NCBI GenBank assembly: GCA_000092065.1
Contig: CP000592.1
DNA length: 64,000 bases
From: Ostreococcus lucimarinus
Taxonomy: Eukaryota
Direction: 5' to 3' (one strand)
The position numbers and the translations under genes were made by a program. The first letter of the stretch is position 1. Each line of letters starts with the position of its first letter. Positions 1 through 31,590 of this stretch are shown here, one piece after another. The notes under the pieces are model-generated. The model saw nothing but the letters and a program-made list of their open reading frames with translations, was not told the origin of the DNA and did not search any database.

Positions 1-470
1 CTCGAGGTTGAAGTCCATGACGGCGCGAGCGCGCGCGCGGGCGTCGAGGAATGACGCGGAATTCGCCCAGAAGCGAGAAGCGCCGGCGACACTTCGACAC
101 GCGCGACGCGCGCGATCGTCGACGCGCGGTCGCGTCGACGCGCGACGACGCGCTCGGGACGCGCGACGATCGCGCGCGCGCGCGAACGCGCGACGCGAGC
201 GAACGACGCGGCGGCGTGCGCGTTTGAGAGATGCGTTTGACTGCGCAACTGTCGGGACATTCGGTGTCGCGCGCGCGCGCGAAATGCGGCGCGCGTGATG
301 CGCGCGAGCGCGCGAGCGCGCGGTGCGTCGGCGCGGGAAGCGGGAGCGCGCGTCTTGGACGCGGGCGAGGCGCTCGATCGACGTCGATGGTCGTCGAGGC
401 GCGAGGGAAGGCGACGGGGCGCGAGGGCGACGCGCCTCGGACGCGCGAACGAGCGCGGAAGGGCTCGCGG

Positions 471-1730
471 ATGGTCATCGCGCGCGCCGCGGGCGAAGGC
501 GTGAAGGTGGAGTCGGTGAAAAAACCGCGATTGCCCGCGCTGGACAGCGTGCGGTTCTTTTTGATCACGTACATCTCGGTCGGGCACTTTATCGCGTGCG
601 CGACGAAGAACGCGCTCGCGCTCGCGGCGTTTTCGCAAGTCAACGTCGTCGTCGGAGCGTTTTTCGTGCTCAGTGGGTACGTCGCGGCGTACACGACGAC
701 GGAGCTGGGCAAGTACGAAGCGCAGACGGGGCGATTACGCCCGACTCCAAAGTATTTCGTCAGTCGCGTGATGGGGTTTTATCCGCTGTACTTTGTCGTC
801 AACTGCGTCTTCGCGCCGATGTTTTTTTATGCGGATTCGTTTTACAACGGGCCGTTGACGGCCGCTGTGCACGGTTTCATGACGTTTACTCTCACCCAAG
901 CGTGGTTCCCCATGCACGCCGAGCTTTGGAACGCGCCGACGTGGTTTTTGAGCGCGTTCACGTTTGCCTTGGCGGCGATGCCGTTCGCGTTGCCGAGCGT
1001 GGCGCGCTTCAAGCGCGAGCACTTGCATTCGGTGTTCAAGGTGCTGATAATCGTGTCTCTCTTGGCGAAGATCGCGTACTCCTACGATCTCAACGCATGG
1101 GGCTTCATGGAAGGCATGATGTCCGCGAAGACGCACCCAAACTGGCTGTACTTTAACTCGGTGCGATTTTCACCCTTCAACGCTTTGATCGACGTCTTAC
1201 TCGGCGCCGTCGCCGCGCGAACCGTCATGGTGGACAGCGCCGAGGGCGAGTCCGTGCCGAAGCAAAACAAACTTTTGGCGTGCTCGGCGACGCCGTTGGT
1301 GGCCATGGTGGCGTTTCTAGCCGCTCGCGCGCTCGGCGTCGTCGCAGTCAACGACGCGTTATCGAGGACAATTTTCACCGTTTTGTTCTCCGCGTTCGCC
1401 GTCAACGTACACCGAGAGACGGTGCGCGAGGGCGGTGAGGGGTCTTTGGTCTCGAAGATTCTTTCGCTAAAACCTTTGGTGTACCTCGGAACGATTTCGT
1501 TCCCGATTTACATCTTACACGGTCCCATCGGTCAGGTGTTTTACAAGCGCGTCGTGGCGACGAAACTCTTCGGCAAGGTTTTCACCCAGTACCCGCAATT
1601 TTTCCCAATCTACCTCCTCATCGTTCTCGTCGCCGCCATGCTGACGCACGAGTTTTTCATTAAGAATAAAAAAGTGCAAGAGCTCAGTAAAGCGGTGAGC
1701 GACAAAGCCACGGCGGCGTTGACGGATTAA
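471..1730 (+). CDS. Acyltransferase family 3 (OafA-like) integral membrane protein
   Basis: ORF 231..1730. The motif LDSVRFFLITYISVGHF matches the N-terminal Acyltransferase_3 signature (LDGLRG..A..V...H). At least 8 hydrophobic helices follow. The first ~80 codons of the ORF are Arg/Ala low-complexity read-through of the CG-rich spacer, so the start is placed at Met471; Met387 and Met231 are alternatives. Confidence 0.6.
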   Translation: MVIARAAGEGVKVESVKKPRLPALDSVRFFLITYISVGHFIACATKNALALAAFSQVNVVVGAFFVLSGYVAAYTTTELGKYEAQTGRLRPTPKYFVSRVMGFYPLYFVVNCVFAPMFFYADSFYNGPLTAAVHGFMTFTLTQAWFPMHAELWNAPTWFLSAFTFALAAMPFALPSVARFKREHLHSVFKVLIIVSLLAKIAYSYDLNAWGFMEGMMSAKTHPNWLYFNSVRFSPFNALIDVLLGAVAARTVMVDSAEGESVPKQNKLLACSATPLVAMVAFLAARALGVVAVNDALSRTIFTVLFSAFAVNVHRETVREGGEGSLVSKILSLKPLVYLGTISFPIYILHGPIGQVFYKRVVATKLFGKVFTQYPQFFPIYLLIVLVAAMLTHEFFIKNKKVQELSKAVSDKATAALTD

Positions 1731-1931
1731 CGGCGAAAATCGTGTAAAACAATTTATCGAGACGACTTTTGTCTTTCATAAAAACGCTATCACCTCTTTT
1801 TTATATGCCTAGAGTGTTTCTTATCGGTTTCAAGCGAACGCGATCTAACGCGAACGCTCCCCCGGGTCTCACGACGCCCTCAAAGAGCGCGCTGACCAGC
1901 ACCCACGTCAACTTCGTCGCGAGGACGAAAT

Positions 1932-2477
1932 TTATTCTTCCTCGTTGTCGTCCGCGATGTTGAAGTATCTCAACTCGTACACGTTGCGTTCCTTGTTGGA
2001 CGCAATCACGCGCAACCAATCACGAACGTTGTGCTTCTTGAGGTACTTCTTCGTGAGGTACTTCATGTAGCGCTTGCTCATCGCGACTTCGCTCGTCACC
2101 GTCACCTTCGTCTTGTCGCTCGACACGCTCACCGCCTCGCCGAGCGCGCCCGCCTTACCACCAACCTTGATACGATCGGTGAGGAACGCGGTGAACGAAC
2201 CAATCTCCATAATCTTGTCCTCGACCTATTCGCATCAAAGAATATCGCATCGTCAGTCATCGTCCCTCGTCGTCGTCTCGAGTCGCGCGTTCGCCGCTCG
2301 CCCTGTATTTTAGGGTTTCACACGCACCGGCTTCGCGCAGTCGATGACAAAGGTGGAAACCTTCTTCTTCGTGTCTACGCCCGCGAAAACATCCCACGCA
2401 TCGTCAGTCGTCTCTCCAACTCGCTTCACTCGCGCGCATCCGCGTTCCCACGACGCGCGGCGGCGACGACGATCCAT
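1932..2477 (-). CDS. RPL22: 60S ribosomal protein L22e, two exons: exon 2 at 1932..2225, exon 1 ending at 2328, intron 2226..2327 (GTGCGT...AATAG); 5' end uncertain
   Basis: The ORF 1932..2210 product (...[16 protein letters not shown]...[43 protein letters not shown]) is a near-textbook eL22 C-terminus. The upstream minus-strand frame encodes [15 protein letters not shown], and splicing CCG|GTGCGT to aatag|GTCGAGGAC restores the conserved ...LDC..PVEDxIMD... junction. Exon 1 may begin at Met2477, or a further upstream exon may exist. Confidence 0.8.
2310..2318 (-). promoter_or_regulatory. Telo-box-like element (AAACCCTAA on the minus strand) just inside the RPL22 first intron
   Basis: Plus-strand TTAGGGTTT at 2310..2318 is AAACCCTAA on the gene strand, 9-10 nt downstream of the proposed GT donor. 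Telo-boxes are characteristic cis-elements of plant ribosomal-protein and translation genes (established knowledge); function here is inferred. Confidence 0.35.
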
Positions 2478-2808
2478 CCCGCCGATCGACCCATCGCGCG
2501 TCGGTCGCGCCCGCGCGCCGTTTCTCGACGCCGCGCCGCGCCGTCGTCGCGTTCGACGCGCCGTCGTCGCGGCGAGAATATCGTTCGCACCTTTCGGGGC
2601 CATGATGTCGTCGACGGGCGCTGTCGCGCGCTTCAAAGAGGCGTCGCGCGACGGCGCGGTCGCCGCGGTCGATGCGTCTGTCGTCCGTGTGTGACTCGAG
2701 ACCGCACCGGACCAATCAACCACCGCGCGCGCCTCGGCGCCGCGCGCGTTCCCTCACACGACGACGCCGACGCGCGCGCGATGGACGCGGCGACGGACGC
2801 GGACGCGG

Positions 2809-3099
2809 GTGCGATCGATCGACGCGACGCGCGCGCGCGGGCGAACGCGCGAACGCGCGAACGAACGACTGACGGCTGACACGTCGTCGACGACAGAGCG
2901 CCCGCCGCCGAGCCAAGACGCGCAGGACGCGCGCGATGAGGCCTCGGCGAAGGTGTACCTCGAAACTCACGTCACGAGCGTCCTGCACGACGCCCTGGTG
3001 GCGCTCAACGCCGCGCGCCCGGCGGACCCGCTCGCGTGGCTCGGCGAGTACCTCTTAAAAGAATCCGCCGCGCGAAAGGCGAAAGCCGACGCCGCGTGA
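2809..3099 (+). CDS. Small Dpy-30 motif protein (RIIa-like dimerisation/docking domain)
   Basis: ORF 96 aa. C-terminal YLETHVTSVLHDALVALNAARPADPLAWLGEYLLKES fits the Dpy-30 motif (..L.....RP.DPi.fLa.yLl). N-terminus is low complexity; start uncertain. Confidence 0.5.
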   Translation: MRSIDATRARGRTRERANERLTADTSSTTERPPPSQDAQDARDEASAKVYLETHVTSVLHDALVALNAARPADPLAWLGEYLLKESAARKAKADAA

Positions 3100-3341
3100 G
3101 CGCGCGTAGTGAGTGTAACGCACATCGCATCGAATTGAATGGCAAAATGGAAAAATGGAAACCTGTCCACGACGGGGCGTCCATACTACCGGGACGGGGC
3201 GTCCCGCATGCGCGGCGAAAAAAAGTGCGCTCGGACTCGCGAGCGCGCGCGAGCGTCGTCAGCGCGCGGACGTACCGCTTCGGCGCGATGTCAACGACAA
3301 CCGTTCGCCCAAAAAAAAGATGCGTTTAGATGTCCACTAGA

Positions 3342-3442
3342 TGTCCACGACGGGGCTCGAACCCGCGGCCTTTTGATGACTCGCGCGTCGCTCGCGCGCT
3401 TCGCGTAGAAGTCAAACTATCTTCCAACTGATATACGTGGAC
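3342..3442 (-). tRNA. tRNA-Arg (anticodon TCT) with a ~28-nt intron 3' of position 37
   Basis: Minus-strand read folds as acceptor GTCCACG / D-arm TATC-AGTTGGAA-GATA / anticodon stem TTTGA / loop CTTCTA / [intron CGCGAAGCGCGCGAGCGACGCGCGAGTC] / A-TCAAA / AGGCC / T-arm GCGGG-TTCGAGC-CCCGT / CGTGGAC-A. All stems pair; U33 and purine-37 are present; the T-loop matches the B-box GGTTCGANNCC. Confidence 0.65.
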
Positions 3443-3445
3443 CGA

Positions 3446-3530
3446 CCTGGGGATTGAACCCGTATCAAACAGAACGTCGACCTAGGTAATTTTACCCAAA
3501 GCCGAGTCGCGATAACCGACGCGGGGCGTT
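3446..3530 (-). pseudogene. tRNA-like remnant (T-arm/B-box-like GGGTTCAATCCCC) immediately upstream of tRNA-Arg; no complete cloverleaf
   Basis: Minus strand contains ...GATACGGGTTCAATCCCCAGGTCGG... resembling a T-arm, but its T-stem makes only 3 bp and I could not find a matching acceptor or D-arm. A further copy of the tRNA 3' end (TGTCCACGACGGGG) lies at 3163..3176. Confidence 0.3.
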
Positions 3531-3731
3531 TTCGGTTTATGTACGACGGCGTCGGCGCGCGTCGCGCGCGCGACGCGCGCGCGCGCTCGACACCCGTCGA
3601 CGCGCGGTCGACGCGCGCGCGCGCGACCGAAGCGACGCGTCGCGCGCGAGACAGAAGCGACGACTCGCGCGCGCGGTCGATCTCGAAACCGTCGAAGCGC
3701 GTCGAATCGAATCGAATCGAACGAGACAACG

Positions 3732-5024
3732 ATGGGTGTTGACGCGTCCGACGACGCGACGTCGCGCGCGCGACGCGTCTCGACGACGTCGACGAGCGAG
3801 CGACGCGGGACGGTGATGATGTCCATCGCGGTGATGGCGGTGTCGAGCCTGATGACGCTCGGGATCAAACGAGGGGTCGAGGGACGGGGATCTTCCGCGT
3901 TCGCGACGCCGTTCAAAGCCGCGCTCGGGCAGCGGATGAAGCACTCGACGTGGGACGAAAGTAATCAGCACGACGGTGGGAACGCCGCGGACGATGGATT
4001 TGTGTCGTACGAGCAACAGCGAGATTTCGAAGGACGCGAGTGGGCGTGGGAAAAGAGGATATCTTGCGATGGTCACGAGGCGTTGGATTTCGACGTCGAC
4101 GCCGTCGAGGAGGGGCGCAAGGCGCTTTGGCGGAACGCGTCGTTTTCGTTCCAGTTTTGGCGCACGCCTCGCTCGCGACACTTTCAGCTGTACGAGCAAG
4201 AAAACATACGCAATGCATTTTGCAAGGCGGGACAGTATCAGGTGAACATCGTGACGATGATGGACCACGCGGATTCGTGCGAGTTCGCGCGCGCGCACTA
4301 CGACAAGGGCGCCGAACAGTTTCCCAAGGATGCAAGTCAACATCTCGGGCGGGGCGCGTTTTATTGCGCCACTCGATCGATTTCGAATTTCCCTTACAAA
4401 CTCATGGCGGTATGCGGCGCTCGATCGATGATAGAGTTCAATCGCGTGGAGAACCTTGCCGCCGCCGTAAGGGGTGGCCAGTCCAACGCCGATTACAGCT
4501 TTCTGAACGCCTACTACGCCGACCCCGAGGATTTCGAAATCTCTTTGATTAATCATCGCATTTTCGACCCACAATTGAATCGCGCGTATCCTACGCAATT
4601 CCGTATGGGTTGTTACAAAGATGGCGCGGTCCGGCGTGCCAATAATTGTCAAGACGGAACGGCGTTTGAGCCGCGGCGCGTCATCTCAACGCGTCTGATG
4701 GGCGGCACGGTGGCTGCCGTTGTGAAGATTGGCTACGGTTATAGTCATTTGACCCGTCGCTGGGTTCCTCTTCAAGGTCAAGGCGAGCGTTGGTCGCTCG
4801 ATGACGATGGACTGGTGGTGGAGAGAAGGAGAAAGAGGGCGAAAGGGTGCGTATGCCCGAGCGACGAGGAAGCCATGACGCAAATGGCGCACCACGATGC
4901 TTTCAAGCATTTTCTCGCTTTTGAGGAAAACGCTGACCGAACCATAGGCACAACGAAAATGCACGAGTACGGCTCGTGTCATTGGGTAGACTTCGGACGA
5001 ACGAAGAGGAAACTCGTGGATTGA
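3732..5024 (+). CDS. Hypothetical type II membrane protein: short N-terminus, one TM (SIAVMAVSSLMTLGI), ~380-aa lumenal/extracellular domain; possibly glycosyltransferase-like
   Basis: Clean 430-aa ORF with no convincing antisense alternative. Body composition is visibly lower GC than the neighbouring genes. No family recognised by eye. Confidence 0.45.
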   Translation: MGVDASDDATSRARRVSTTSTSERRGTVMMSIAVMAVSSLMTLGIKRGVEGRGSSAFATPFKAALGQRMKHSTWDESNQHDGGNAADDGFVSYEQQRDFEGREWAWEKRISCDGHEALDFDVDAVEEGRKALWRNASFSFQFWRTPRSRHFQLYEQENIRNAFCKAGQYQVNIVTMMDHADSCEFARAHYDKGAEQFPKDASQHLGRGAFYCATRSISNFPYKLMAVCGARSMIEFNRVENLAAAVRGGQSNADYSFLNAYYADPEDFEISLINHRIFDPQLNRAYPTQFRMGCYKDGAVRRANNCQDGTAFEPRRVISTRLMGGTVAAVVKIGYGYSHLTRRWVPLQGQGERWSLDDDGLVVERRRKRAKGCVCPSDEEAMTQMAHHDAFKHFLAFEENADRTIGTTKMHEYGSCHWVDFGRTKRKLVD

Positions 5025-5062
5025 TTTTAGCCGTAGGTAGTATTAATGAAATTTCGATGTTG

Positions 5063-8000
5063 TCACCCAGTGTTTTGCATCCCGGCTGCGATGCCCTTCA
5101 TCGTGATTTTTAAAACGTCGTTCACCGCGCCCTTGTAATTGTAATCTTGGAACGGGTAACCCTCGAGCAAGGTGATCTTGACTTTTTGCATGCTTAGCTT
5201 ATCGCCATCTTCTTCATTTTCAAGCGCGCGAGCGGCGATGAGATATCGCACTTGACACACGTTGAGCGGCGTGATGTACAGCGACCGCTTGTGAAGTTTG
5301 TGAGCGAGCTTTTTATGCACCTGAACCGCCTCGTTCGCCTCGACTTTTTCTGGTTTGGCGAGCAAACCGATATGCTCGGAGACGGCGAGGATGCAATCGA
5401 TGCTTTCTTGAAGCTCGCCGCGCAGACTGGCGCCGAAGTCGTGCAATTTTGGATCGACAAGGGCTCTTTCGTAATACGCCACGACGACGGGATCCGCCTT
5501 GGCGAGCACCATCTCCACTAAATCGATCGTCACCTCAAAGAAAGGCCAACTTTTGTACATGTCCCTCAGCGTTTCCAGTTCGCCTTCGTCGATCAAGCGT
5601 CTGAATGATGTGGAAATTCCGAGCCAGACTGGCAAGTGGAATCGCGACTGCGTCCACGCGAAAATCCACGGAATTGCTCGAAGAGCGGTGACGCCCGCAC
5701 TCGGTTTACGCTTGGCCGGTCGAGAACCGATGTTGAGCGATCCAAGCTCGGCTCCAGGCGTGGCCTGTGCAAAGTATCCGACGAAATCAGGGGTTTCGAA
5801 CACAGTCTTACGATAATGCGCGCATGAGTATTCGCTCATTCTATCCATGACTCGGCGCCATTCATCGCGAGGATGCGCCGGCGGCTTCAACGTGTGCTCC
5901 AGAACGGACGCCGTGTACAAATCCAGAGTGTGAAAACAGTTTTCTTTTTCACCGAAGTCGGTTTCGATCACTTCTCCTTGCACGGTGACTCTGATGCTAC
6001 CATTCACAGTGCCTGGAGGCTGAGACAACATGGCAATGTGCGCTGGACCTCCCCCGCGACCTACGGTGCCTCCGCGACCGTGAAACAGGGTGAGCGCAAC
6101 GTCAAACTCCTTCCCTGCCGCCACGACGCGTTCTTGACCATCGTACAGCGCCCATGCTGCAGCCATGCGACCAGCGTCTTTTCCACTATCCGAATACCCG
6201 ATCATAACCTCTTGGAATCCCGCGATGTGGTCGTGATACCACTTCACGGAGAAGAGCTGGCGCAACACGCGCGGGGCGTCGTTCAGATCGTCGAGTCGCT
6301 CAAAGAGCGGTGCAACGCGAAGAAGATCCTGTTTGCGACAGCCACACTCGCGCTGTAATAATACAACTGCCAAAACATCGCTGGCACTTGTCGCCATGGA
6401 TATAACGTACGTTCCGAGGGCACCCGGGCACGTTTGTTGCAAGTGCGCAATCATCTTACACGTGTCCAGGACTTCTCGAACGTCGTCCGAGCATTCGAGG
6501 TCGGAAGGTAAAAGTGGCCGCTTGCTCTCAAGCTCGCGTGTCAGGAACTCAATTTTCTGTTCCTCACTCCATTCGAGGTACGATCCGAGGCCGATGTACC
6601 TGGTCACCGCGTCCAAAGCCTCGGCGTGGCGATCAGATTCTTGCCGGATATCGAGTTTGACCAGCCCCAACCCAAAGCACTGCACTTGGCGAATGACGTC
6701 GAGAAGATAGGCGTTGGCAATTTGAGCGTCACCGACTTCGATGAGAGACTCGTAGCACACCACCAAGGGTGCGAACAGTTCGTCCTTGGAACGAATGATA
6801 GTCTCGTCGTTCATGTCGATGTTGACGTCGTTGTCCGCGATGCAACGCTGCAACGCCTCTCGCGTGTTGTAAAGCTTGTCTCGAAGTTCAGCCAAGATGA
6901 CGCGGTAAGGCTCGTGCTCGGGAATGGCCTTCCAAAAGTCATCGTAGTTTCGCTTCTTGCGCTCTTCGAAGATCGTAAAGTTGTCCGTTTCCGAGTTCTC
7001 CAAGATGTCCTTTGCCAACGCCTTGACGGCGTCGTTGCATCGCCACATGGACAAATCGAAAATCAGACGCTGAATCGCTCGGAAGAGTAGGTTAACCCCT
7101 TGCACACGGGCCAAGAGAACGACGTCGCGCGTACATGATGCCGTGACGTATGGGTTGCCGTCACGATCACCACCCATCCACGACCCGAACGTAACGATGG
7201 ATCTGTCGAGCGGCAAACGAGGGCATCCGTTTGCCAAGAGCGACGTGTCCACGCGACGCATGAAAGTTGGGATGCCATCCCAGATGGTTTGCTGAAAGTA
7301 CGTCAGACCCGCGCGCATTTCGTCTTGAGGCTTCGGTGGCGTGCGGCGGATCTCATCTGTGCGCCACGCCGAGGCGACCTTCGATCGAATCTCGTCCAAA
7401 ACTTCTGCACGCTCGTATCGCGAAAGGCGAAATCGTTGCAGCTGCAACAGCTTTTCACGAATTATTCCGAAAGATTTCAACATCGACCGTCTCAAGGCTT
7501 GCGTGGGGTGGGCGGTGAGCACTAAATCAACGTGCTGCACCGCTAAAGCGCTGTAGATTTCCTCCGTCGACTTCCCGGCTCGAAGCAAACCTTTAATCGC
7601 GCCGTTCGTCGTCTTTGCCGGCCCTCGCGGAATATCGTCCAAACGTCTGTGTCTTTCCTCCATCGCGTTCGCCACTTGCTCGGAAATATTGTGCAGATTC
7701 AACAGATTCGAGTACGCCGACGCGAACTGCAACGATTCATCCACTTCCATCGTCTCCAACATCGCCTGCATCGCGTCGAAATCCTTCGGGTCGTGCGAGC
7801 TGCCAAACTTTTCGCTCGCCTCGTACACGCTCTTCAACTGCCCCAAAAACTTATCTCCCGCCGTCTCCCTCACCACGGCGAAGAAGATCGTCCGAAGCAG
7901 TTCATCACACTCCTCAATCACGTCGTGCGCGTTGAACTCCTTCGTCTCTCCCCTACCGCTCAGATAACTCGACGACCGCGCCAGGGCGTCCAGCGCCTCG

Positions 8001-8086
8001 CCCTCCTCGCTCGCGAACAACGACCCCGTCCGTTTATGCGACGTTATCTTCGCCTTATCCTTCCCACTGAACACCGCCTTCAACAT
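5063..8086 (-). CDS. PPC: Phosphoenolpyruvate carboxylase
   Basis: Contains PEPC signatures VLTAHPTQ, GYSDSGKDAGR and FHGRGGTVGRGGGP, and the canonical C-terminus ...GIAAGMQNTG. ORF 5063..8374; the first 96 codons are Arg-rich spacer read-through, so the start is set at Met8086 (MLKAVFSG...). Confidence 0.9.
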   Translation of the reverse strand: MLKAVFSGKDKAKITSHKRTGSLFASEEGEALDALARSSSYLSGRGETKEFNAHDVIEECDELLRTIFFAVVRETAGDKFLGQLKSVYEASEKFGSSHDPKDFDAMQAMLETMEVDESLQFASAYSNLLNLHNISEQVANAMEERHRRLDDIPRGPAKTTNGAIKGLLRAGKSTEEIYSALAVQHVDLVLTAHPTQALRRSMLKSFGIIREKLLQLQRFRLSRYERAEVLDEIRSKVASAWRTDEIRRTPPKPQDEMRAGLTYFQQTIWDGIPTFMRRVDTSLLANGCPRLPLDRSIVTFGSWMGGDRDGNPYVTASCTRDVVLLARVQGVNLLFRAIQRLIFDLSMWRCNDAVKALAKDILENSETDNFTIFEERKKRNYDDFWKAIPEHEPYRVILAELRDKLYNTREALQRCIADNDVNIDMNDETIIRSKDELFAPLVVCYESLIEVGDAQIANAYLLDVIRQVQCFGLGLVKLDIRQESDRHAEALDAVTRYIGLGSYLEWSEEQKIEFLTRELESKRPLLPSDLECSDDVREVLDTCKMIAHLQQTCPGALGTYVISMATSASDVLAVVLLQRECGCRKQDLLRVAPLFERLDDLNDAPRVLRQLFSVKWYHDHIAGFQEVMIGYSDSGKDAGRMAAAWALYDGQERVVAAGKEFDVALTLFHGRGGTVGRGGGPAHIAMLSQPPGTVNGSIRVTVQGEVIETDFGEKENCFHTLDLYTASVLEHTLKPPAHPRDEWRRVMDRMSEYSCAHYRKTVFETPDFVGYFAQATPGAELGSLNIGSRPAKRKPSAGVTALRAIPWIFAWTQSRFHLPVWLGISTSFRRLIDEGELETLRDMYKSWPFFEVTIDLVEMVLAKADPVVVAYYERALVDPKLHDFGASLRGELQESIDCILAVSEHIGLLAKPEKVEANEAVQVHKKLAHKLHKRSLYITPLNVCQVRYLIAARALENEEDGDKLSMQKVKITLLEGYPFQDYNYKGAVNDVLKITMKGIAAGMQNTG

Positions 8087-8490
8087 CGCGCGTTTCTTTA
8101 TCGCCTCCCTCGTCTCCGGTATCGCTCGCGCGTCGTCCCTCGCGCTCGGCGCGTCGTCCCTCGCCGTCCGAAGTCCCGCCTTCGCGTCGTTCGGTCCCTC
8201 GCGTTCGCGTCTCTTTCCTTTCCTTCGCCCGTCGCTTTCTCGCTCGTTCGGTCGTCCGTCGTTCGGTGCGTCGCGCGCGTCCGTCACCGGTCGCGCGTCG
8301 CGTCGAAGCGCGTCGCCGCGCCGTCGTGTGCGCGCGATCGTCGGCGGTTGGCGTCGGCGGGCGCGCTCGCACACGCGGGTGTTTTCTAGGGTCTAGGGCA
8401 TCGCGCTGGGCGTCCCGCCGCGGCGCGCGTGGACGACGCGGCGGAGCGCGACGCGACGACGACGACGACGACGCGACGACGACGACGGTG
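8087..8490. promoter_or_regulatory. Putative bidirectional promoter between PEPC (-) and argininosuccinate lyase (+)
   Basis: Head-to-head genes about 400 bp apart. Spacer is CG-rich with (GACGAC)n and GCGCGACG motifs. Inference only. Confidence 0.35.
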
Positions 8491-10008
8491 ATGTCGCTCT
8501 CGACGCGCGCGACGCCGACGCCGACGCGCGCGAACGCGAACGCGAACGCGAACGCGAACGCGCGACGAAAAAGCGACGCGCGAGGACGAGGACGAAGGCG
8601 CGACGTCGCGCGCGGCGCGGCGAGCGATGAACCGAAAAAGCTGTGGGGCGGACGATTCAGCGAGGCGCAGGACCCGCTGATGGAGAAGTTTAACGAATCG
8701 CTGTCGTTCGATCGACGGATGTGGCGAGAGGACGTGGAGGGTTCGGTCGGGTACGCGCGGGCGCTGGCGAGGGCGAGGGTGATCACGAACGACGAGAGGG
8801 ACGCGCTGATCGATGGATTGGGCGAGGTGGGAAAGGAGTGGGAGCGCGGGGCGTTCGCGGCGAAGGCTGGGGACGAGGACATACACACCGCGAATGAACG
8901 GCGGTTGACGGAACTCATCGGAGACGTCGCGGGGAAGTTGCACACCGGACGGTCGAGAAACGATCAAGTGGCGACGGATACGCGCATGTGGTTGCGCGGG
9001 GAGTTGCTTAGGATTCGAGCGCACCTGAGGACGTTGATTGAGATCGCGGTCGATCGCGCCGAGCGCGAGGTGGACGTGGTCATGCCCGGGTTTACGCACT
9101 TGCAGAGCGCGCAGACGGTGCGATGGTCGCATTGGTTGCTTTCGCACGCCGCGGCTTGGCAGCGAGACGATCAGAGGTTGGGAGACATGATTAAACGCGT
9201 GAACGTCATGCCTCTCGGTTCGGGGGCGTTGGCGGGGAACCCGTTCGGCATCGATCGTCAACTGTTGGCCAAGGATTTGGGTTTCGACGGCGTGTGCCCG
9301 AATTCCATGGACGCCGTGAGCGATCGCGATTACATCGCCGAGGCGAGCTTTTGGGCGTCGATGACGGCCACGCACCTGTCTCGATGGAGTGAAGATTTGA
9401 TCGTGTACTGCTCGCAGCAGTTTGGTATGGTGAAGTGTTCGGACGCGTACTCCACCGGCTCCTCCCTGATGCCGCAAAAGAAGAACCCGGACGCGTTGGA
9501 GCTCTTGCGCGGCAAGAGCGGCACGCAAATTGGTTCGCTCATGGCAGTCTTAGCCACCATCAAGGGCACGCCCACGACGTACAACAAAGATCTTCAAGAG
9601 GTCTGGCACGCCATGTACTACACCGTGGATAATATGAGCGATTCGTTACAAATCGCCGCCGGCTGCTTGGCGACGCTCAAAATTTACCCCGACGCTATGG
9701 AACGCGGTTTGTGCGCGGAAATGCTCGCCACCGATCTCGCCGAGTATCTCGTTCGCAAGGGTGTACCATTTCGCGAGACTCATCACATCTCCGGCGCCGC
9801 CGTCAAGCTCAGCGAAGACCGCGGCGTACCGCTTTCCTCATTAACCGTCGACGACTTGAAGCCCCTCTGCGCCGCCTTCGACGCCGACGTCGCCGAGGTT
9901 TGGTCGTACGAGAAATCCGCCGAGTCCCGCGACACCGAGGGCGGCACCTCGCGTCGCAGCGTTCTCGAGCAGTGCGCCAAGCTTCGCGCGTACCTCGCCG
10001 CCAACTAA
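8491..10008 (+). CDS. ASL: Argininosuccinate lyase (fumarate-lyase family) with N-terminal presequence
   Basis: Fumarate-lyase signature GSSLMPQKKNPD, plus KLWGGRFSE...DRRMW and HTGRSRNDQV blocks. Start placed at Met8491 (MSLSTRATPTPTRANANANANA...). A (CGAACG)5 microsatellite at 8531..8560 encodes the AN-repeat. Confidence 0.9.
   Translation: MSLSTRATPTPTRANANANANANARRKSDARGRGRRRDVARGAASDEPKKLWGGRFSEAQDPLMEKFNESLSFDRRMWREDVEGSVGYARALARARVITNDERDALIDGLGEVGKEWERGAFAAKAGDEDIHTANERRLTELIGDVAGKLHTGRSRNDQVATDTRMWLRGELLRIRAHLRTLIEIAVDRAEREVDVVMPGFTHLQSAQTVRWSHWLLSHAAAWQRDDQRLGDMIKRVNVMPLGSGALAGNPFGIDRQLLAKDLGFDGVCPNSMDAVSDRDYIAEASFWASMTATHLSRWSEDLIVYCSQQFGMVKCSDAYSTGSSLMPQKKNPDALELLRGKSGTQIGSLMAVLATIKGTPTTYNKDLQEVWHAMYYTVDNMSDSLQIAAGCLATLKIYPDAMERGLCAEMLATDLAEYLVRKGVPFRETHHISGAAVKLSEDRGVPLSSLTVDDLKPLCAAFDADVAEVWSYEKSAESRDTEGGTSRRSVLEQCAKLRAYLAAN
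8531..8560 (+). repeat. (CGAACG)5 hexanucleotide microsatellite inside the ASL presequence (encodes ANANANANAN)
   Basis: Seen directly. Confidence 0.9.
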
Positions 10009-10089: not shown

Positions 10090-11097
10090 ATGCCTCGCGA
10101 TCGCCTCCGTTCGCCCCGCGCGCTCGCCGCGCTCGCGTGCGTCATCGCGCTCGCGCGCGCGCGCGCCCGCGCCGACGCGAAAGTGCTCAACGACGACGCA
10201 TTCGTCGGCGACGACGCGCCTCGTTACGTCGTGCGCGTCCCGAAAGATCCACTCGACGTCAGCCCCATCGCGCCGCATCGACGCGTGCCCATGACGGCGC
10301 ACGACGGGAAGAAGTACGTGTGCACGATACCGCTCGGCGCGACCGGTGACGGCGAGGACGACGGCGAGGACGATGGTGCGCTCGAGACGGCGCTGGGCGG
10401 GACGCGCGAAGACGCGGAGACGCCAAAGGCGACGCGGTTGGAGGACATCGAACGCGCGCGCACGGTGGACGAACACCTGCGACCGCTCGAGGGACGATGC
10501 TTTTATTATGGCAATGGCGATTGGTGGACGTACGAGCTGTGTTATAAGACGCGAGTCGAACAGTTCCATCGAGAGGGGACGACGAGGGTGAATTCGTACT
10601 CGCTTGGAAAGTTTGACGAGGCGGCGACGATGGAGTTGGGGAGCGAAAGAGCGGCGACGATGGGCGATGGTGCGGAAGCAGGCGTAGATAGTGGGAAGTT
10701 GGCGCTGGAGAATCAGCGCTATCACGCGCACGCGTTCACAGATGGGACGAAATGTGAAGATGTCGGCGCGGCGTACAGCGAGACGCGGCGCACGAGCGAG
10801 GTGCGCTTCGTGTGCGCCGAGGACGGTAGCGAAGGATTGAGTGGAGTGGAAGAGCCGGCGACGTGTAGATATGTGTTGACTTTTAGAACGCCTCTGGCGT
10901 GCAAAGCGAAAGATTTAAGGCCGAAGCGGCCGGACGTGGAACAAATCACGTGCGCGCTCGTCGAGGACGACGCCGCCGACGAAACGGCGGCGCGCAACGG
11001 TGGAGAAAACCCCGAGCCCGCGACGAACGCCGCCGAGAGCGCCGGGGCTGACGCGCAAACGTCCACCGCGAGCGCGCAATCGCGCGAAGAGCTTTAG
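10090..11097 (+). CDS. OS9: OS-9/Yos9-like ER lectin with MRH (mannose-6-phosphate receptor homology) domain and signal peptide
   Basis: N-terminal signal peptide (ALAALACVIALARARA). MRH-domain block GRCFYYGNGDWWTYELCYKTRVEQFHRE closely resembles the OS-9 WWTYEFCYG...QYH motif; conserved Cys pattern present. Confidence 0.7.
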   Translation: MPRDRLRSPRALAALACVIALARARARADAKVLNDDAFVGDDAPRYVVRVPKDPLDVSPIAPHRRVPMTAHDGKKYVCTIPLGATGDGEDDGEDDGALETALGGTREDAETPKATRLEDIERARTVDEHLRPLEGRCFYYGNGDWWTYELCYKTRVEQFHREGTTRVNSYSLGKFDEAATMELGSERAATMGDGAEAGVDSGKLALENQRYHAHAFTDGTKCEDVGAAYSETRRTSEVRFVCAEDGSEGLSGVEEPATCRYVLTFRTPLACKAKDLRPKRPDVEQITCALVEDDAADETAARNGGENPEPATNAAESAGADAQTSTASAQSREEL

Positions 11098-26655: not shown

Positions 26656-29600
26656 CTACGAGCGCGGACGCGCGGCGGTGCGAACGCAGATGCGGGTGTG
26701 GTCGTCGTACGCGATGACGCGATGGGCGTGGTCGGGGAGGGGTGGCGAGGCGCGGACGGCGAACTCGGCGACGCGACGACGACGCTCGAGGCGAAGCGCC
26801 AAGTACGCGCGCTCGGCGGGGGATTGGCAGTCGGTGTACACGACGTGGAGGGATGAGGCCGGGATATCGCGAGCGCGGATGGTTTCGCACGCGTCGGCGG
26901 CGGTGAGGAGGCGGGAAATGAGATCCGGGGGGGCGTCGGGAAGCCTGGCGCGCGCGGACGCCGCGCGAAACGTCGCGCGCTCGGCGACTTGGAGCGAGGC
27001 GAAGACGAAATCGTACTCGTCCAGCGTCAACGGCTCGGTGCGCGCGAAAAAGTGCGAGCACGTGTCGATTGCTGTTTTGATCGATTCGTGCGTCTCCGCC
27101 GGTGCTCGCGCTGATGCTTCCTCCGACGACGTGAGCCACCACGACGACAAAATAGCCGCCGTCGCCGCGCACGCGCATCGCGCGGCGACGTCGAAGAGCG
27201 CGGTGGCTGGGATCGTCTCGAGATAATGCATCGCTTTCTCGCCCTCAACGATCGGATCAAACAGAGGGTGCTGTTTATGCGCCGGCACGCGCGGCGCGCG
27301 CGTCCATAGCTCGAGCCACGTGTTTCCGTCGCGGCGCATTCTGTCGCTCAAGCGTCCGCTCGATTCGTCTGTTTGTTCTTCTCCGGCGCCGGAGACGATC
27401 CAATCTTTGGGAGAGTGCCAACGCACGAAATCTTCAAACACCGCGCGTGGATTCGCGGCTTTGAACGCGGACATATCGGACACGAGCGAATCGCTTTGAA
27501 TGCGTTGTCGCGCGGCGCGACCCTCGTCGTCGTCTCCGAACGCTCGAAGCGCCGCTTCGCGCTCCGCCAACGCGTCCTCCGTCATGCACGGTGCTTCTTG
27601 CGTGATCGGCGCGCGAATGAACGCATGCGGTGCGTTCAACAAACGAATTTTCAGTGTCTCTGAGACCCCTTCCGCGCGGCTGTCGTCGCCGTCTTCGGGC
27701 GACAAATCTTCCTCGGCGCTCGCGTACTCGTCCGACTTCGCCGTCGTCGCGCTCTCGCTCCCGCTCATCGCTCTCTCGAGCGCTGCGCTCGAAAGCTCAA
27801 CGTCGCCACTCAACAGCGCGTTTAAATCTAATTCATCGTCCACGGGATGACGCATTCTCGTCGACGTCGAGCTCGTGGTTTTGAGCAAACGATCGAACTC
27901 GTCACCACGTGGCGAGTCGGCGGATCTCGGCTGCGCGCCGTCGCTCGCTCGCGTCGACGCGTGCAACTCGGCGTCGCTCTTCGCGTTCCTTCGCGCGATG
28001 CATTGATTAAGCATCTGCAATTTTTGGTAAACTATGCATGCGCCGTGATCGATGCCTAGAATTTCATCGCGCACGACGCCTGGAACGAGTCGTCCCCGTT
28101 CCCAGTATTCGCGTCGCAACTCGCGAGCGAAAGCGTTCCACGAATGCGCCACCGCGCGCGGATTTTTCAACGAGCAGCACGCGTGAAGGGCGAAACGGGC
28201 AAGGATAGAATTGGCAGGCGCCGTTTTGTACGGTTCACGAAACGACTCTTGCGTCACCAACGCCGTCGTCGCGAAGGACGTAAAGATATCACGCGTCACC
28301 CCTCGAGCCGTTTCGTCGTTCGGTATGTGAGGCGTCTGGTATCCGCGCTCGACCCAAAACTCCGCGCTCGCCAAAGTCATCGTGTCCAATGCCCCCGTCA
28401 CATCTTCGACATCTTCTCCACGAATGATCTCCGCGCTCTCGATGAGCGAGAATATCGCCTCGCTCATCGATGACGTGTCGCTCGAAATGACGGCGTCGTC
28501 CTCCTCGCCTCGATCTCGCGCCGCTTGCGTGAGGTCGCCCCGCAAACGCCAAATCGGCGCGTCTTCGACGTCGAGATCGGAGAATGTGACGCAATCTAAG
28601 CGCACATCGAGCCAGAGCGCGTCCACCTCTAACGTCCGCCACGGATCCTCCGCGTGTACCCATGCAGCCCAAGGACAATCGTCGTCCCACTCGTCGACGC
28701 GCAAACCGAAATCGTCGTCGTCGCTCTCGTCTTCAATTTCAGACGTCATCGGCGATGTCGTAGCCTTTGCGCGCGTGAACTCGCGCGTGATGCGCGCTGA
28801 AACAATCGAACTTTCCAAGGCTTTCGTTTCCGCGTCGATATCTGCCGTAGATGGGTTCGAGCGACGCGTCTCGCGAACGCTTCTGTAAAACGCGTTCACG
28901 CACCCCGCGAAAGTTCGCGCCGTTACCTCCTCGCGCGAACTAAAACGCGTGAACCTTGTGACGTCGGTTTCACAAACCGCATCGTCGTTATCATCACCCG
29001 CGCACACGTCCGCGGAAAAATCGCGCTCGTAAAAACCTCGCGGGGTCGCCACCGCCACGGCGCCGCCGACGCGAAGCGCCGACATCGCCAACGCGAACGC
29101 GGATCGCACCGTCAGGGCCTCGTCCTCGTCCACGAACTGCCCCGCCCCGCTCGCGCTCATCGGACGGACTAAAATCACGCACGCACAATCGAAAAACGTG
29201 ACGTAATCGAACCCATCCACCGTTCGTTTCCTCGCGTCGTACTCGGACGAAGCGCGCGCTCCGTCGCGTCCGGCGTCGCGCGCGAGCTCGAGCAAACTCT
29301 TCCCTCGCAGCGTCTCCCACGCGCGTCCGCGTCTGAGCCGTTCGACATCAACGTACATCTCGCACCCGTACGCCTCTTTCCGCCAGTGCAAGCCGTGTTC
29401 GCGAAACTCGCGTCGAAACGCCGCCGCCGCGCTCGCGCGCGTCGAAACCGTCGCCGCGTCCTCGTCCAACCACTCCCGCAGCGTCGTCTCCGCGTCCCGC
29501 GCCAGCGTCTCGAACGGCGTCGCGCACGAGTAATCCTCGTGCGCGACGACGCGACCGTCGTCCGAGCCATCGTCGTCGTCGCGCGGCGCGTCGTCGTCGT

Positions 29601-29718
29601 CGCGCGCGCGTCCCTCGCGCAAAGTCTCGCGCGCATCCTTCGAGCGTCGCGTCGCGTCGTCGACGTTCGCGCGTCGCGCGTCGACGTCGACGCCGGTCGC
29701 GCGCGCGTCGCTCGCCAT
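26656..29718 (-). CDS. Large conserved protein, Rab3-GAP catalytic-subunit-like (tentative)
   Basis: 1020-aa ORF with low antisense coding potential. Blocks such as ILARFALHACCSLKNP...WNAFARELRREYWERGRLVPGV and IVYQKLQMLNQCIARR recall the Rab3GAP1 C-terminal domain. This rests on my memory of the family, not verified. Confidence 0.35.
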   Translation of the reverse strand: MASDARATGVDVDARRANVDDATRRSKDARETLREGRARDDDDAPRDDDDGSDDGRVVAHEDYSCATPFETLARDAETTLREWLDEDAATVSTRASAAAAFRREFREHGLHWRKEAYGCEMYVDVERLRRGRAWETLRGKSLLELARDAGRDGARASSEYDARKRTVDGFDYVTFFDCACVILVRPMSASGAGQFVDEDEALTVRSAFALAMSALRVGGAVAVATPRGFYERDFSADVCAGDDNDDAVCETDVTRFTRFSSREEVTARTFAGCVNAFYRSVRETRRSNPSTADIDAETKALESSIVSARITREFTRAKATTSPMTSEIEDESDDDDFGLRVDEWDDDCPWAAWVHAEDPWRTLEVDALWLDVRLDCVTFSDLDVEDAPIWRLRGDLTQAARDRGEEDDAVISSDTSSMSEAIFSLIESAEIIRGEDVEDVTGALDTMTLASAEFWVERGYQTPHIPNDETARGVTRDIFTSFATTALVTQESFREPYKTAPANSILARFALHACCSLKNPRAVAHSWNAFARELRREYWERGRLVPGVVRDEILGIDHGACIVYQKLQMLNQCIARRNAKSDAELHASTRASDGAQPRSADSPRGDEFDRLLKTTSSTSTRMRHPVDDELDLNALLSGDVELSSAALERAMSGSESATTAKSDEYASAEEDLSPEDGDDSRAEGVSETLKIRLLNAPHAFIRAPITQEAPCMTEDALAEREAALRAFGDDDEGRAARQRIQSDSLVSDMSAFKAANPRAVFEDFVRWHSPKDWIVSGAGEEQTDESSGRLSDRMRRDGNTWLELWTRAPRVPAHKQHPLFDPIVEGEKAMHYLETIPATALFDVAARCACAATAAILSSWWLTSSEEASARAPAETHESIKTAIDTCSHFFARTEPLTLDEYDFVFASLQVAERATFRAASARARLPDAPPDLISRLLTAADACETIRARDIPASSLHVVYTDCQSPAERAYLALRLERRRRVAEFAVRASPPLPDHAHRVIAYDDHTRICVRTAARPRS

Positions 29719-29780
29719 CGCGCGCCGCGCCGCGCGCGCGGACGCGCGACGCGACGTCGCGCGCGACGGCGTGACGATTT

Positions 29781-30305
29781 GTGTCGCGTCACTCGCCGTC
29801 GCGCATGCGCGGCGTCGTCGCCGCCCTCCTGGACCGCGTCCCGGACCGCGTCCCGCGAACGCACGCGCGCTTTTTCGACGTCGCGAACGCGTGCGCGTGC
29901 GCGGCGTGGATCGTCCTCGCGCGCGACGCGCTGCGCGAGAAGAGATCGGCGCGCGCGAGACGTTTCGTCGTCGACGGCGCGGTCGCGACGCTGTGCGCGG
30001 CGTACGCGTGGTTGCTCGTCGCGTGCGTCGCGAAGGGAGTCGACGCGCGCGCGTCGTTCGGCTCGCTCGCGGGCGTGCGCGCGCTGTTCGAGCGCGACGA
30101 CGCGTTGCTCGCGGGGTGGTTGCACTTTTTAGCCTTTGACGCGCGCGTGGCGGATTGGTTGATTGACGAAGAACGCGCGCGGGGGGTGCCGCGAATGTGC
30201 ACGGCGTGCGTCACGCTGCCGTTGACGTTCGCGTGCGGGCCCGTGGGGTACGCGTGGAGCGCGTGCGCGCGAAAAGTGTTGGCGCGCGAAACGCGAAGAC
30301 GATGA
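29781..30305 (+). CDS. DUF4281 / ABA4-like (neoxanthin-synthesis-associated) small membrane protein
   Basis: GWLHFLAFDARVADWLIDEERARGVPR...TLPLTFACGPVGYAWSA matches the conserved W.HLL..DLF.AR....D...P...L...CP.G motif of the ABA4/DUF4281 family. Start could be Met29805 (MRGVV...). Confidence 0.5.
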   Translation: MSRHSPSRMRGVVAALLDRVPDRVPRTHARFFDVANACACAAWIVLARDALREKRSARARRFVVDGAVATLCAAYAWLLVACVAKGVDARASFGSLAGVRALFERDDALLAGWLHFLAFDARVADWLIDEERARGVPRMCTACVTLPLTFACGPVGYAWSACARKVLARETRRR

Positions 30306-31105
30306 CGGCGCGCGCGAGCGCGCTCGGCGCGGCGTACGCGTGCGCGGCGGCGCTTTGCGGGATGATGATCGTGTGGATCGCGCGCGCGCCGGGGAGCTGC
30401 GCGCCGGCGTACCTGAGCGCGATGAAGGATGCGTCGTTTCGCGAGGCGAGCGACCGCGCGGTGCCGAGAACGTTGTTGACAAAGTATCAGACGAATTTCG
30501 CGGTGTGCGCGACGCACGTGCTGCCGGCGAGCGCGTGGTGCGCGATCGCGCCGTTTCAAATTCACCCGACGGCGCGAAAGCGGTTTCCGAAGGCACACCG
30601 AATCGCGGGGCGAGTGTTCTTCGCGTTGTCGGCGGCGATGACGTACGGGTACGGCGTCATTCACGCGCGAGATTTACACTTTCACGCGAACGATTTCCCA
30701 TCGCTCAAACGCGAGGAATGCGTGTCATTTTGGTTTGATTACGGCAAGATTCCAGGATTGTCGTTCGTGCGCATCGAGCATCTCGGTGCGGCGTGGTTCG
30801 CGTTCACCGCGTGCGCGGCGTACGCCGCCGTCGCGTTTCCGCCGCGAAATTTCGCCGCGCACCGCGCGTGGACGTGGCGTCACGTCGCCGCCGGTCTCTC
30901 CGTCGCCCTCCAGCGCGTCTTCATCGCGCTCCACCACGTCTACTTCAACGCCGCGCACGGATTCGGCCACGCCCACGGCGTGCCAGAGCTCCAGAAGCCC
31001 ATCTTCGCGGACTCTTTAATCTTCGGCGTCGTCGTCGCCGTCGTCGCGTGCGAATCGTGCGTCGCGCTCGCGCGTCCGCCGCGCGACCGGGCGAAAAAGT
31101 CTTGA
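30302..31105 (+). CDS. Hypothetical multi-pass membrane protein
   Basis: ORF 30197..31105, trimmed to Met30302 (MTARASALGAAYACAAALCGMMIVWIA...). Has 5-6 hydrophobic helices and several His-rich motifs. Its ATG overlaps the stop of the upstream ABA4-like ORF (ATGA). Family not recognised. Confidence 0.4.
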   Translation: MTARASALGAAYACAAALCGMMIVWIARAPGSCAPAYLSAMKDASFREASDRAVPRTLLTKYQTNFAVCATHVLPASAWCAIAPFQIHPTARKRFPKAHRIAGRVFFALSAAMTYGYGVIHARDLHFHANDFPSLKREECVSFWFDYGKIPGLSFVRIEHLGAAWFAFTACAAYAAVAFPPRNFAAHRAWTWRHVAAGLSVALQRVFIALHHVYFNAAHGFGHAHGVPELQKPIFADSLIFGVVVAVVACESCVALARPPRDRAKKS

Positions 31106-31215
31106 CGCGTGTATCACGATTACGAAAAAGTCTTGACGCGTAAACATTACGATGACGATGACGATACGATTACGAAAAAGTCTTGACGCGTAAACATTAC
31201 GATGACGATTACGAT
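31091..31215. repeat. Tandem repeat (about 50-bp unit x2.5) containing ACGATTACGAAAAAGTCTTGACGCGTAAACATTACGATGACGAT
   Basis: GAAAAAGTCTTGACGCGT recurs at 31093, 31124 and 31174. It sits between two convergent gene ends. Confidence 0.8.
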
Positions 31216-31305
31216 GACGTTCGCGACGCGCGCGCGTCCGCGCGTCCGCGCTCGAACTCGAATCCGAGGCGGACGTCCAACCTCCGCGGTGCCCGGTGCC
31301 CGGTT

Positions 31306-31590
31306 TCACGTCCCCGACGATTTCCCGACGCACCAGCACGCCGACGCCGCGACCGCCATCGCCGCGCTTTTGAGCGCCGAGACCGCCGACATCGTCGCCC
31401 CCCACGACTGCAACAGCGCGAACGCGCCGCCCGCCGGTACGAGGCCGCCGTAGAACGCGGACTGCGCCGTCGCCGCGAGCGATCCCGCGGCGACGCCCGC
31501 CTGCGTGAATCCCACGAGCGCGAGCGCGGATTTCAACGCCGCGCCGGCGCTCGCGGCACCGACGGCGACGGCGATGAGCGCGTGTAACAT
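31306..31590 (-). CDS. Ifi-6-16 / ISG12 (IFI27-like) family small hydrophobic protein
   Basis: MLHALIAVAVGAASAGAALKSALALVGFTQAGVAAGSLAATAQSAFYGGLVPAGGAFALLQSWGA aligns well with the IFI27/IFI6 core (GFTGAGIAA.S.AA...S......GG.V.AGSLVATLQS.GA). ORF extends to 31728; start trimmed to Met31590. Confidence 0.6.
   Translation of the reverse strand: MLHALIAVAVGAASAGAALKSALALVGFTQAGVAAGSLAATAQSAFYGGLVPAGGAFALLQSWGATMSAVSALKSAAMAVAASACWCVGKSSGT

Follow-up and report, generated by a model that had tools for sequence, protein, structure and literature searches.

Why should a complete, intron-containing transfer RNA (tRNA) gene carry a damaged copy of its own 3' half directly upstream of its first nucleotide? 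This question is raised by a tRNA-Arg(UCU) gene on the minus strand (-) of a stretch of nuclear DNA of 64,000 nucleotides (nt) from the green picoalga Ostreococcus lucimarinus CCE9901, referred to as the window, whose positions are used as coordinates throughout. The gene is probably a formerly permuted tRNA-Arg gene that has been re-linearised, and the upstream block would be the relic of its old 3' half. The evidence lies in the relic itself, in orthologues in which the 3' half is encoded ahead of the 5' half, and in a phylogeny in which the non-permuted lineages are nested among permuted ones. Orthologous loci were gathered via the flanking proteins, and L-numbers denote the contigs compared in this way. 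The relic, its orthology to permuted 3' halves, the de-permutation and the hotspot of variation in the 3' flank are undescribed in the literature searched, Maruyama et al. 2010 aside.

The tRNA-Arg(UCU) gene

The locus is an ordinary RNA polymerase III (Pol III) tRNA-Arg(UCU) gene with a canonical intron between positions 37 and 38. Rfam matches RF00005 at 3342..3442 (-) with 53.4 bits against a gathering score of 29 (E=1.2e-8), and its alignment places a 30-nt insert in the anticodon loop, after UCU. ARAGORN has no intron mode by default and then finds no tRNA in the window; the intron search (ARAGORN -i) returns tRNA-Arg(tct) with 73 mature nt and a 28-nt intron that it places one base 3' of 37/38, which is an equivalent alignment. 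Both programs agree with the identity, anticodon and boundaries given for this gene in an earlier first-pass annotation made from the sequence, and its intron of about 28 nt between positions 37 and 38 corresponds to the 28 nt that ARAGORN -i places at 3378..3405. Together, Rfam and ARAGORN -i define exon 1 (positions 1-37) at 3406..3442, the intron CGCGAAGCGCGCGAGCGACGCGCGAGTC at 3378..3405 and exon 2 (positions 38-73) at 3342..3377, all on the minus strand.

The spliced sequence folds into a canonical cloverleaf (ARAGORN) with CUUCUAA as the mature anticodon loop. The anticodon-intron pair C32:G(-3) is present in the minimum free energy fold of the pre-tRNA and, by inspection, is kept in every intron-containing orthologue; the folding energy of the pre-tRNA is not better than that of shuffles. 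The intron is predicted to be removed by the splicing endonuclease and ligase. An internal B box, GGTTCGAGCCC, lies at 3353-3363, and a T8 run at 3311..3318 (-), 24-31 nt past the tRNA 3' end, is the Pol III terminator in this haplotype. Homologous trailers and T-runs occur in L007 and L009. These belong to the close relatives with the same intron-containing tRNA, namely L007, L008 and L017 (PEPC 98% identical) and L009 (acyltransferase 88% identical), whose introns measure 26 nt in the L007 group and 35 nt in L009. Expression, splicing and aminoacylation of the tRNA are supported indirectly by this conservation and by a compensatory change of the 2:71 pair in L009, from U-A to A-U.

As a kind, the tRNA gene itself is already known, and tRNAscan-type surveys would have caught it. 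It shares the 37/38 intron, the 32:-3 pair, the A and B boxes and the downstream T-run with the canonical intron-containing nuclear tRNA genes (Arg(UCU), Tyr, Ile(UAU), Leu(CAA)). The gene body is identical in kind to these; what sets the locus apart is the relic in its 5' leader and the proposed origin of its intron. O. lucimarinus has ~44 nuclear tRNA genes, four of them permuted (PMC3673656), and Arg(TCT) is not among these four (PMC3673656; PMC3978253 Table 1). The gene at 3342..3442 is therefore very probably the sole Arg(UCU) gene of the species.

No second tRNA was found in 2900..3800 by Rfam, even at E<=10, where the other matches are at chance level. A tandem or dicistronic tRNA-tRNA pair was rejected, as there is one tRNA only and the upstream piece lacks an acceptor stem, D arm and anticodon arm. 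Two further ARAGORN -i predictions in the window, a tRNA-Ala(cgc) with a 2111-nt intron (29494-31695) and a tRNA-Lys(ttt) with a 187-nt intron (29649-29931), are GC-rich, poorly structured and without Rfam support, and are regarded as false positives.

A probable relic of a 3' half upstream of the gene

Upstream of the tRNA lies a 42-nt block at 3449..3490 (-), delimited by alignment and conservation, that reads as a relic of a tRNA-Arg 3' half. Local alignment, which extends over positions 38-65 of the Arg 3' half, divides it into three parts on the minus strand. The first, ATTACCTAGGTCG (3478..3490), covers positions 38-49, with ATTACC-TAGGTCG as the aligned stretch; the second, ACGTTCTGTTTGATA (3463..3477), is an insertion of 15 nt; and the third, CGGGTTCAATCCCC (3449..3462), corresponds to positions 50-63 and contains the B-box-like GGTTCAATCCC at 3450..3460. 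The T-arm/B-box-like remnant that had been proposed at 3446..3470 is borne out by this motif, which falls inside it, although the relic as a whole spans 3449..3490. When the relic was aligned locally to the Arg 3' halves of five lineages, its score was reached by 0-19 of 2000 shuffles, with the best pairs at 0-4 of 2000. The TAGGTCG of the relic is identical to the variable-loop region of L019.

The block resembles a 3' half, and 6 nt separate it from the 5' half downstream, yet it is both cut short and interrupted. It has no acceptor 3' strand, and joining the 5' half to the relic with the insertion removed yields no tRNA in ARAGORN. Without an acceptor complement, the block fails both as an alternative 3' half and as a complete, odd tRNA. 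It also lacks C/D or H/ACA boxes, and a small nucleolar RNA (snoRNA) was rejected. The 6-nt spacer between the relic and position +1 of the tRNA (AGGTCG, 3443..3448, -) is variable, reading GGGGCG in L007 and GAAAAACATC in L009. Its GTCG may be a stump of the T-stem and acceptor strand of the relic (alignment CCCC--GTCG).

The relic is not a dispersed element. It occurs once in the window at up to three mismatches, and its 21-mer core was found in eight contigs of the metagenome collection, all at this orthologous locus, and in no viral contigs. These counts speak against a tRNA-derived dispersed repeat or short interspersed nuclear element, and the suggestion in the first-pass annotation of a tRNA-derived repeat is not supported. 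A third B-box match in the window, at 19855, is ordinary GC-rich sequence with nothing tRNA-like nearby by eye.

Permuted and non-permuted orthologues

Circularly permuted tRNA genes of the Mamiellophyceae and of Cyanidioschyzon were reportedly described by Soma et al. 2007 and Maruyama et al. 2010. In the window, the tRNA sits between a Dpy-30-domain gene (+ strand, ending at 3099) and an open reading frame (ORF) of 430 amino acids (aa) at 3732..5024, identical to XP_001420705.1 of O. lucimarinus CCE9901, with PEP carboxylase (PEPC) adjacent. All Ostreococcus loci share this neighbourhood, which consists of Acyl_transf_3, L22e, Dpy-30, the tRNA, the 430-aa homologue, PEPC, ASL and PRKCSH. Two more distant contigs, L029 and L030, have a looser neighbourhood of PEPC, ASL, RH_dom and DEAD_2.

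At this position, several lineages encode the tRNA in permuted form. O. tauri CAID01000012.2 carries, in the same interval between Dpy-30, the 430-aa homologue and PEPC, the arrangement ATCTGGTGGTCGCGGGTTCGAACCCCGTCACGGACA, 11 nt, GTCCGTGTATATCAGTGGAAGATTCCCAGACTTCTA and a T-run, which is a permuted tRNA-Arg. This agrees with the published O. tauri entry, a permuted tRNA-Arg(TCT) of type II (37/38) with an 11-bp intervening sequence (PMC3978253 Table 1). A permuted Arg(UCU) with the same 11-nt spacer is found in L022, and two further Ostreococcus lineages are permuted at the same locus; the spacer measures 42 nt in L019-21 and 8 nt in L028. Permuted Arg(UCU) genes are also present in the Micromonas-like L029 (GC 69%) and the Bathycoccus-like L030 (GC 39%). 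When their halves are joined, L019, L022, L028, L029, L030 and O. tauri all give tRNA-Arg(tct) in ARAGORN, with compensatory changes in the stems. L010 and its relative L033 have plain intron-containing genes, with introns of 51 nt and 52 nt, respectively.

The O. tauri gene and that of the window agree in tRNA species, chromosomal locus and 37/38 break point, and both have 3'-half sequence upstream of the 5' half with a TATA-like element before it. They differ in that the upstream 3' half of the window is dead, having no acceptor strand and a 15-nt insertion, and in that its 5' half precedes an intron and a functional 3' half rather than a T-run. Permuted orthologues have a T-run within ~15 nt after position 37; unlike these, position 37 in the window leads into the intron and 3' half with no T-run there. 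As the intron and a downstream 3' half are present, the window gene would give a normal cis-spliced tRNA for which a circular intermediate is unneeded.

Some features of individual orthologues stand apart from the question of layout. The whole permuted unit of L019 (promoter, 3' half, spacer, 5' half and terminator) is bracketed by a 17-nt direct repeat, ACCCGTAACTTTTGACA, at 10740-10756 and 11006-11022 of that contig, which may be the footprint of a segmental duplication or an insertion of the unit. Orientation of the tRNA unit relative to the flanking genes also varies, with L009, L022/L031 and L028 opposite to the window, L007, L010 and L019. A unit of ~250 bp must then have been inverted locally at least two or three times, independently. 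The tRNA-Arg(UCU) of L033 (2590-2700, -) has the T-loop AUCGAAA, with A at position 54, a U6.U67 mismatch and the 52-nt intron, and may be a degenerating or atypical gene.

Conservation of the relic and its leader

Within the O. lucimarinus group, the upstream block is near-invariant. The window, L007 and L009 share CTCGGCTT ... ATTA(C/T)CTAGGTCGACGTTCTGTTTGATACGGGTTC(A/G)ATCCCC, whereas intron, spacer and trailer have diverged or are unalignable across the three. The window and L009 are the group's most distant lineages; their relic blocks agree at 41 of 43 positions, whereas their four-fold degenerate sites are 79% identical. In L009, tRNA and relic block have been inverted together, as one unit, with respect to the flanking gene. 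Over these three lineages, the evidence that the relic is under constraint is moderate. The suggestion of decayed tandem tRNA copies comes near the mark for this upstream piece, which is a degenerate copy of an Arg 3' half by alignment and makes no tRNA with the 5' half. The permuted sister loci fit better with the old 3' half of a permuted or duplicated layout, and 41 of 43 identical positions do not describe a freely decayed sequence.

Further upstream, the leader motif CTCGGCTT (3499..3506, -) is invariant in the three lineages and is predicted to pair with AGGTCGA(C)G of the relic in a long hairpin, with 18 pairs in the consensus fold. By inspection, a CGGCT similar to this motif lies upstream of the functional 3' halves of L019 and O. 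tauri. A TATA-like box, TACATAAA, is found at 3536..3543 (-), ~30-35 nt upstream of CTCGGCTT, and reads TATATAAA in L007 and TATATGAT in L009. It is a candidate Pol III upstream promoter that would have been inherited from the permuted layout. Upstream TATA-like elements have been described for algal and permuted tRNA genes (PMC3978253). With the conserved TATA-like box on one side of it and position +1 of the tRNA on the other, the relic is probably transcribed as part of a 5' leader of ~65 nt that is cut off by RNase P. Alternatively, the relic may act as the promoter region from -10 to -50, as TTTGATA at -27 to -21 and CAA at -14 to -12 lie within it. Either role would explain the conservation of the relic in the O. 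lucimarinus group.

These features also bear on a different origin for the block, in which it was never tRNA-derived but is an independent element, either a promoter module with a B box for TFIIIC or a leader non-coding RNA (ncRNA), whose likeness to a T-arm is convergent. Strong conservation, the consensus-like B box inside the block and, by inspection, the TATA-like and CAA motifs at promoter-like distances would all suit such an element. There is also a precedent in O. tauri, where the ncRNA-tRNA dicistron mncR67-tRNA-Glu has been reported (bioRxiv 10.64898/2026.07.10.737489). Like this dicistron and the tRNA-snoRNA dicistrons of plants, the window has a conserved non-tRNA sequence directly upstream of a tRNA that could be co-transcribed and freed by RNase P; unlike them, the block is tRNA-derived and without snoRNA boxes. 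The similarity does not stop at the B box but runs on into the TAGGTCG variable-loop segment, which is specific to tRNA-Arg(UCU), and the block stands exactly where the functional 3' half sits in the permuted orthologues. It matches no Rfam family and is absent from the tables that supplement the mncRNA study of O. tauri (bioRxiv 10.64898/2026.07.10.737489), nor does it match the probe used there. An independent element is very improbable. Exaptation of a relic for such a role is compatible with descent from a permuted gene and is not a true alternative to it.

Direction of change

If the block descends from a 3' half, the remaining question is which layout came first. A neighbour-joining tree of PEPC and ASL (1399 ungapped columns, 1000 bootstraps) recovers Ostreococcus as monophyletic with 100% bootstrap, and both outgroups in it are permuted. 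The non-permuted O. lucimarinus, L007 and L010 form a clade (81%), which joins the permuted L028 (73%), while O. tauri/L022 and L019 are more basal. With the non-permuted clade nested and both outgroups permuted, the tree is read most simply as showing an ancestral permuted layout that was abandoned once. Phylogeny and anatomy would place this single de-permutation before the O. lucimarinus group and L010/L033 parted. L033 retains a more decayed leader and relic, in which the leader and insertion segment are recognisable and the T-loop is lost; its score is reached by 5 of 3000 shuffles. The relic still has its T-arm in the O. lucimarinus group, is partial in L033 and undetectable in L010, an order of decay that fits de-permutation.

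The change can be pictured as follows. The ancestral, circularly permuted layout would have consisted of the 3' half, a short spacer, the 5' half and a T-run. In the lineage ancestral to both the O. lucimarinus group and L010/L033, a second 3' half would have arisen downstream of the 5' half, either because the unit was duplicated in tandem or by template switching. What had been trailer and leader, sequences that already formed a bulge-helix-bulge substrate for the endonuclease, would then have become the canonical 37/38 intron. The old upstream 3' half would have become redundant, losing its acceptor strand, gaining the 15-nt insertion and ending unable to make tRNA. In its full form, in which a permuted gene reverted to a contiguous one, made its 37/38 intron from trailer and leader, and had its old 3' half exapted as promoter or 5' leader, the proposal is an even call.

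The same anatomy can be read with the polarity reversed. A plain intron-containing gene would have been duplicated to give a 3' half followed by 5' half, intron and 3' half; O. lucimarinus would be the intermediate, and the permuted lineages would have lost the downstream 3' half independently. This follows the published model for the origin of permuted genes, duplication with loss of the outer segments (PMC3978253 section 10), of which the window shows exactly the predicted intermediate. Permuted genes are treated as convergent in the same review, and the basal branching of Ostreococcus is poorly resolved. The distribution of layouts nonetheless makes this polarity unlikely. Five lineages, two of them outgroup genera, have permuted Arg(UCU) genes in this gene neighbourhood, and the non-permuted lineages form one nested clade. 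It would take at least three to five independent losses, or else a redundant intermediate would have had to survive the splits between genera.

De-permutation is preferred, and a number of points weigh against it or against the readings that go with it. Permutation at 37/38 is known to arise convergently. Direction is drawn from a two-protein neighbour-joining tree whose supports of 81%, 73% and 53% are moderate; the branching was not resolved by PEPC by itself, and adding ASL improved the resolution. No lineage with two intact 3' halves was found among the compared loci, and nothing upstream of the L010 gene resembles the relic significantly. In the published tables (PMC3978253), a permuted Arg(TCT) is lacking for both sequenced Micromonas strains, and therefore the state of L029 may not be general. 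Conservation of the relic against the four-fold-site rate gives about p=0.003, for three fairly close lineages and a block chosen post hoc. The leader hairpin has zero covarying pairs in the consensus fold, and its fold energy is not better than that of shuffles (z about -1). The transcription start, the leader and the function of the relic are deduced from the DNA itself. As for the 3' flank described below, its haplotypes are known from metagenome assemblies, and a repair, template-switch or slippage mechanism would be a reading of the junction sequences.

The origin of permuted tRNA genes has so far been argued through models only. Intermediates proposed in PMC3978253 section 10 are tandem repeats of intron-containing tRNAs and an extra 5' half near the permuted tRNA-Cys(GCA) of O. 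lucimarinus. Like the window, these show a partial extra tRNA half beside a functional gene in the same genome, as the trace of a duplication. They differ in that the extra piece of the window is a 3' half upstream of a non-permuted gene whose sister orthologues are permuted, and the phylogeny here points from permuted to non-permuted; the locus is not mentioned in the review. Here, one genus and its relatives provide an orthologous series, with O. tauri permuted, O. lucimarinus carrying a fossil 3' half, and further decay in L033 and L010. This series makes the direction and mechanism of the transition between layouts testable and points to a specific route by which a canonical tRNA intron can be born. 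If the proposed history is true, the locus preserves the stages from a permuted gene through relic and intron, then decayed relic, to a plain gene. Permutation and de-permutation would then form a possible cycle and one route of intron gain in eukaryotic tRNAs. In practical terms, tRNA annotation in the Mamiellophyceae must weigh both layouts for the same gene.

The hypervariable 3' flank

Copies of the tRNA 3' end are also found on the other side of the gene, and these have a different character. Over 12-15 kb, the near-identical contigs compared here have a single large structural break, the flank at 3165..3341. Haplotypes were compared in 14 sequences, the window and 13 metagenome contigs that are 99.2-99.9% identical over 12-15 kb, and their alignments show at least eight structural haplotypes in sequences that elsewhere agree at about 99.5%. 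Several of these recur in independent assemblies.

The reference haplotype is that of the window and L015. In it, a perfect 15-nt repeat, TGTCCACGACGGGGC, is found at 3164-3178 and 3342-3356. The first-pass annotation had noted this repeat of the tRNA 3' end at 3163..3176; the repeat stands, but the 14-mer TGTCCACGACGGGG lies one position on, at 3164..3177, within the longer perfect copy. At up to two mismatches, the pattern has four matches against a shuffle mean of 0.73, with 0 of 100 shuffles reaching four. Similarly, the duplication of 'AGATGTCCAC' reported at 3328..3349 is real, as an exact 11-nt tandem repeat of TAGATGTCCAC (3327-3337 and 3338-3348) made of the last 7 nt of the tRNA and 4 nt of trailer, and is shifted to 3327..3348. 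A 12-nt direct repeat, GACGGGGCGTCC, occurs at 3171-3182 and 3193-3204, and a second T-run (T7) at 3218-3224 (-).

Comparison of the window and L015 with L001, L002 and L013 delimits a 36-nt segment, GCCCCGTCCCGGTAGTATGGACGCCCCGTCGTGGAC, at 3165..3200 (-). The tRNA 3' end is present in it twice, once in full and once in part, between flanks of GGAC microhomology, and the segment reads as a templated insertion. The segment is missing from the L001 haplotype, where GCATGCGGGAC is joined to AGG. L002 and L013 lack the 11-nt duplication, have GTGGACATCTAGCTGAGACGCATC in its place and carry a different middle segment, and other fillers are found in L004 and L016. In the 'empty' alleles of L012 and L014, the tRNA end is joined directly to GGTTTCC. 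As the trailer and T-run of filled alleles are homologous to the trailer of L007, the empty alleles are derived deletions. Altered junctions in L011, L018 and L005 change C72 to U, giving G1.U72, and alter the discriminator context (window-equivalent 3342-3344). Going by these contigs, the acceptor end of tRNA-Arg(UCU) is polymorphic in wild populations. Two single-nucleotide differences lie within the gene itself. L013 has a G-to-A change in the T-loop (TTCGAAC, window-equivalent about 3357), the state of O. tauri and L028, and L006 has one single-nucleotide polymorphism in the intron.

Decayed tRNA copies, as proposed for this side of the gene, do not account for these fragments, which comprise only the last 7-15 nt of the gene and are present or absent among haplotypes. 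The 3'-end copies fit recent polymorphic scars of repeated break repair, template switching or replication slippage, in the form of templated insertions, a tandem duplication and microhomology deletions, with junctions within the last nucleotides of the tRNA. They could also be viewed as an att or target-site duplication left by a mobile or integrative element, with the 163 bp in between as the element or its remnant. Perfect 15-nt repeats of a tRNA 3' end on both sides of such a segment invite this view, and the empty alleles of L012 and L014 look like sites that were never occupied or were vacated by exact excision. The repeats stand 178 bp apart, and there is no ORF of note between them. 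The segment has no terminal inverted repeats or poly(A) tail and no other copy in the window, and other filled haplotypes have no 15-nt repeat and end in GGACA only. In addition, the proximal trailer and T-run are homologous to the L007 trailer and hence ancestral rather than inserted. A mobile or integrative element, or a short interspersed nuclear element, between the repeats is barely credible here.

Elevated mutation and fragility are known at the flanks of tRNA genes, as are templated insertions of the type made by polymerase theta or microhomology-mediated end joining. As in those cases, the variants of the window cluster beside a highly transcribed Pol III gene, and the junctions show microhomology of 4-15 nt and copies of nearby sequence. 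Known hypermutation of tRNA flanks consists mostly of point substitutions, whereas the variants here are indels of 30-200 bp with junctions reaching the last nucleotides of the tRNA. Structural variation has a natural hotspot directly 3' of this essential single-copy tRNA.

One contig was set aside in this comparison. L003 matches the window at 99.9% from 3217 onward, and its left flank is divergent. Leftward, over its positions 1-9493, it carries unrelated genes (ribosomal S13/S15, MAD, PsbP-like) with GC up to 0.77 and no match to the window. It is probably a chimeric assembly, the alternative being a translocation that broke within the 3' flank of the tRNA, and it was not used as evidence.

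Other features of the window

Between the promoter region of the tRNA and the start of the 430-aa gene, the sequence at 3544-3700 is dense in GC-rich palindromic repeats of the CGCGCG type. A short run of about four TCGAA units follows by eye at about 3706-3725, before the 430-aa gene. A second, small indel polymorphism relative to L001 and L002 is found at 130-182 of the window, upstream of the acyltransferase gene.

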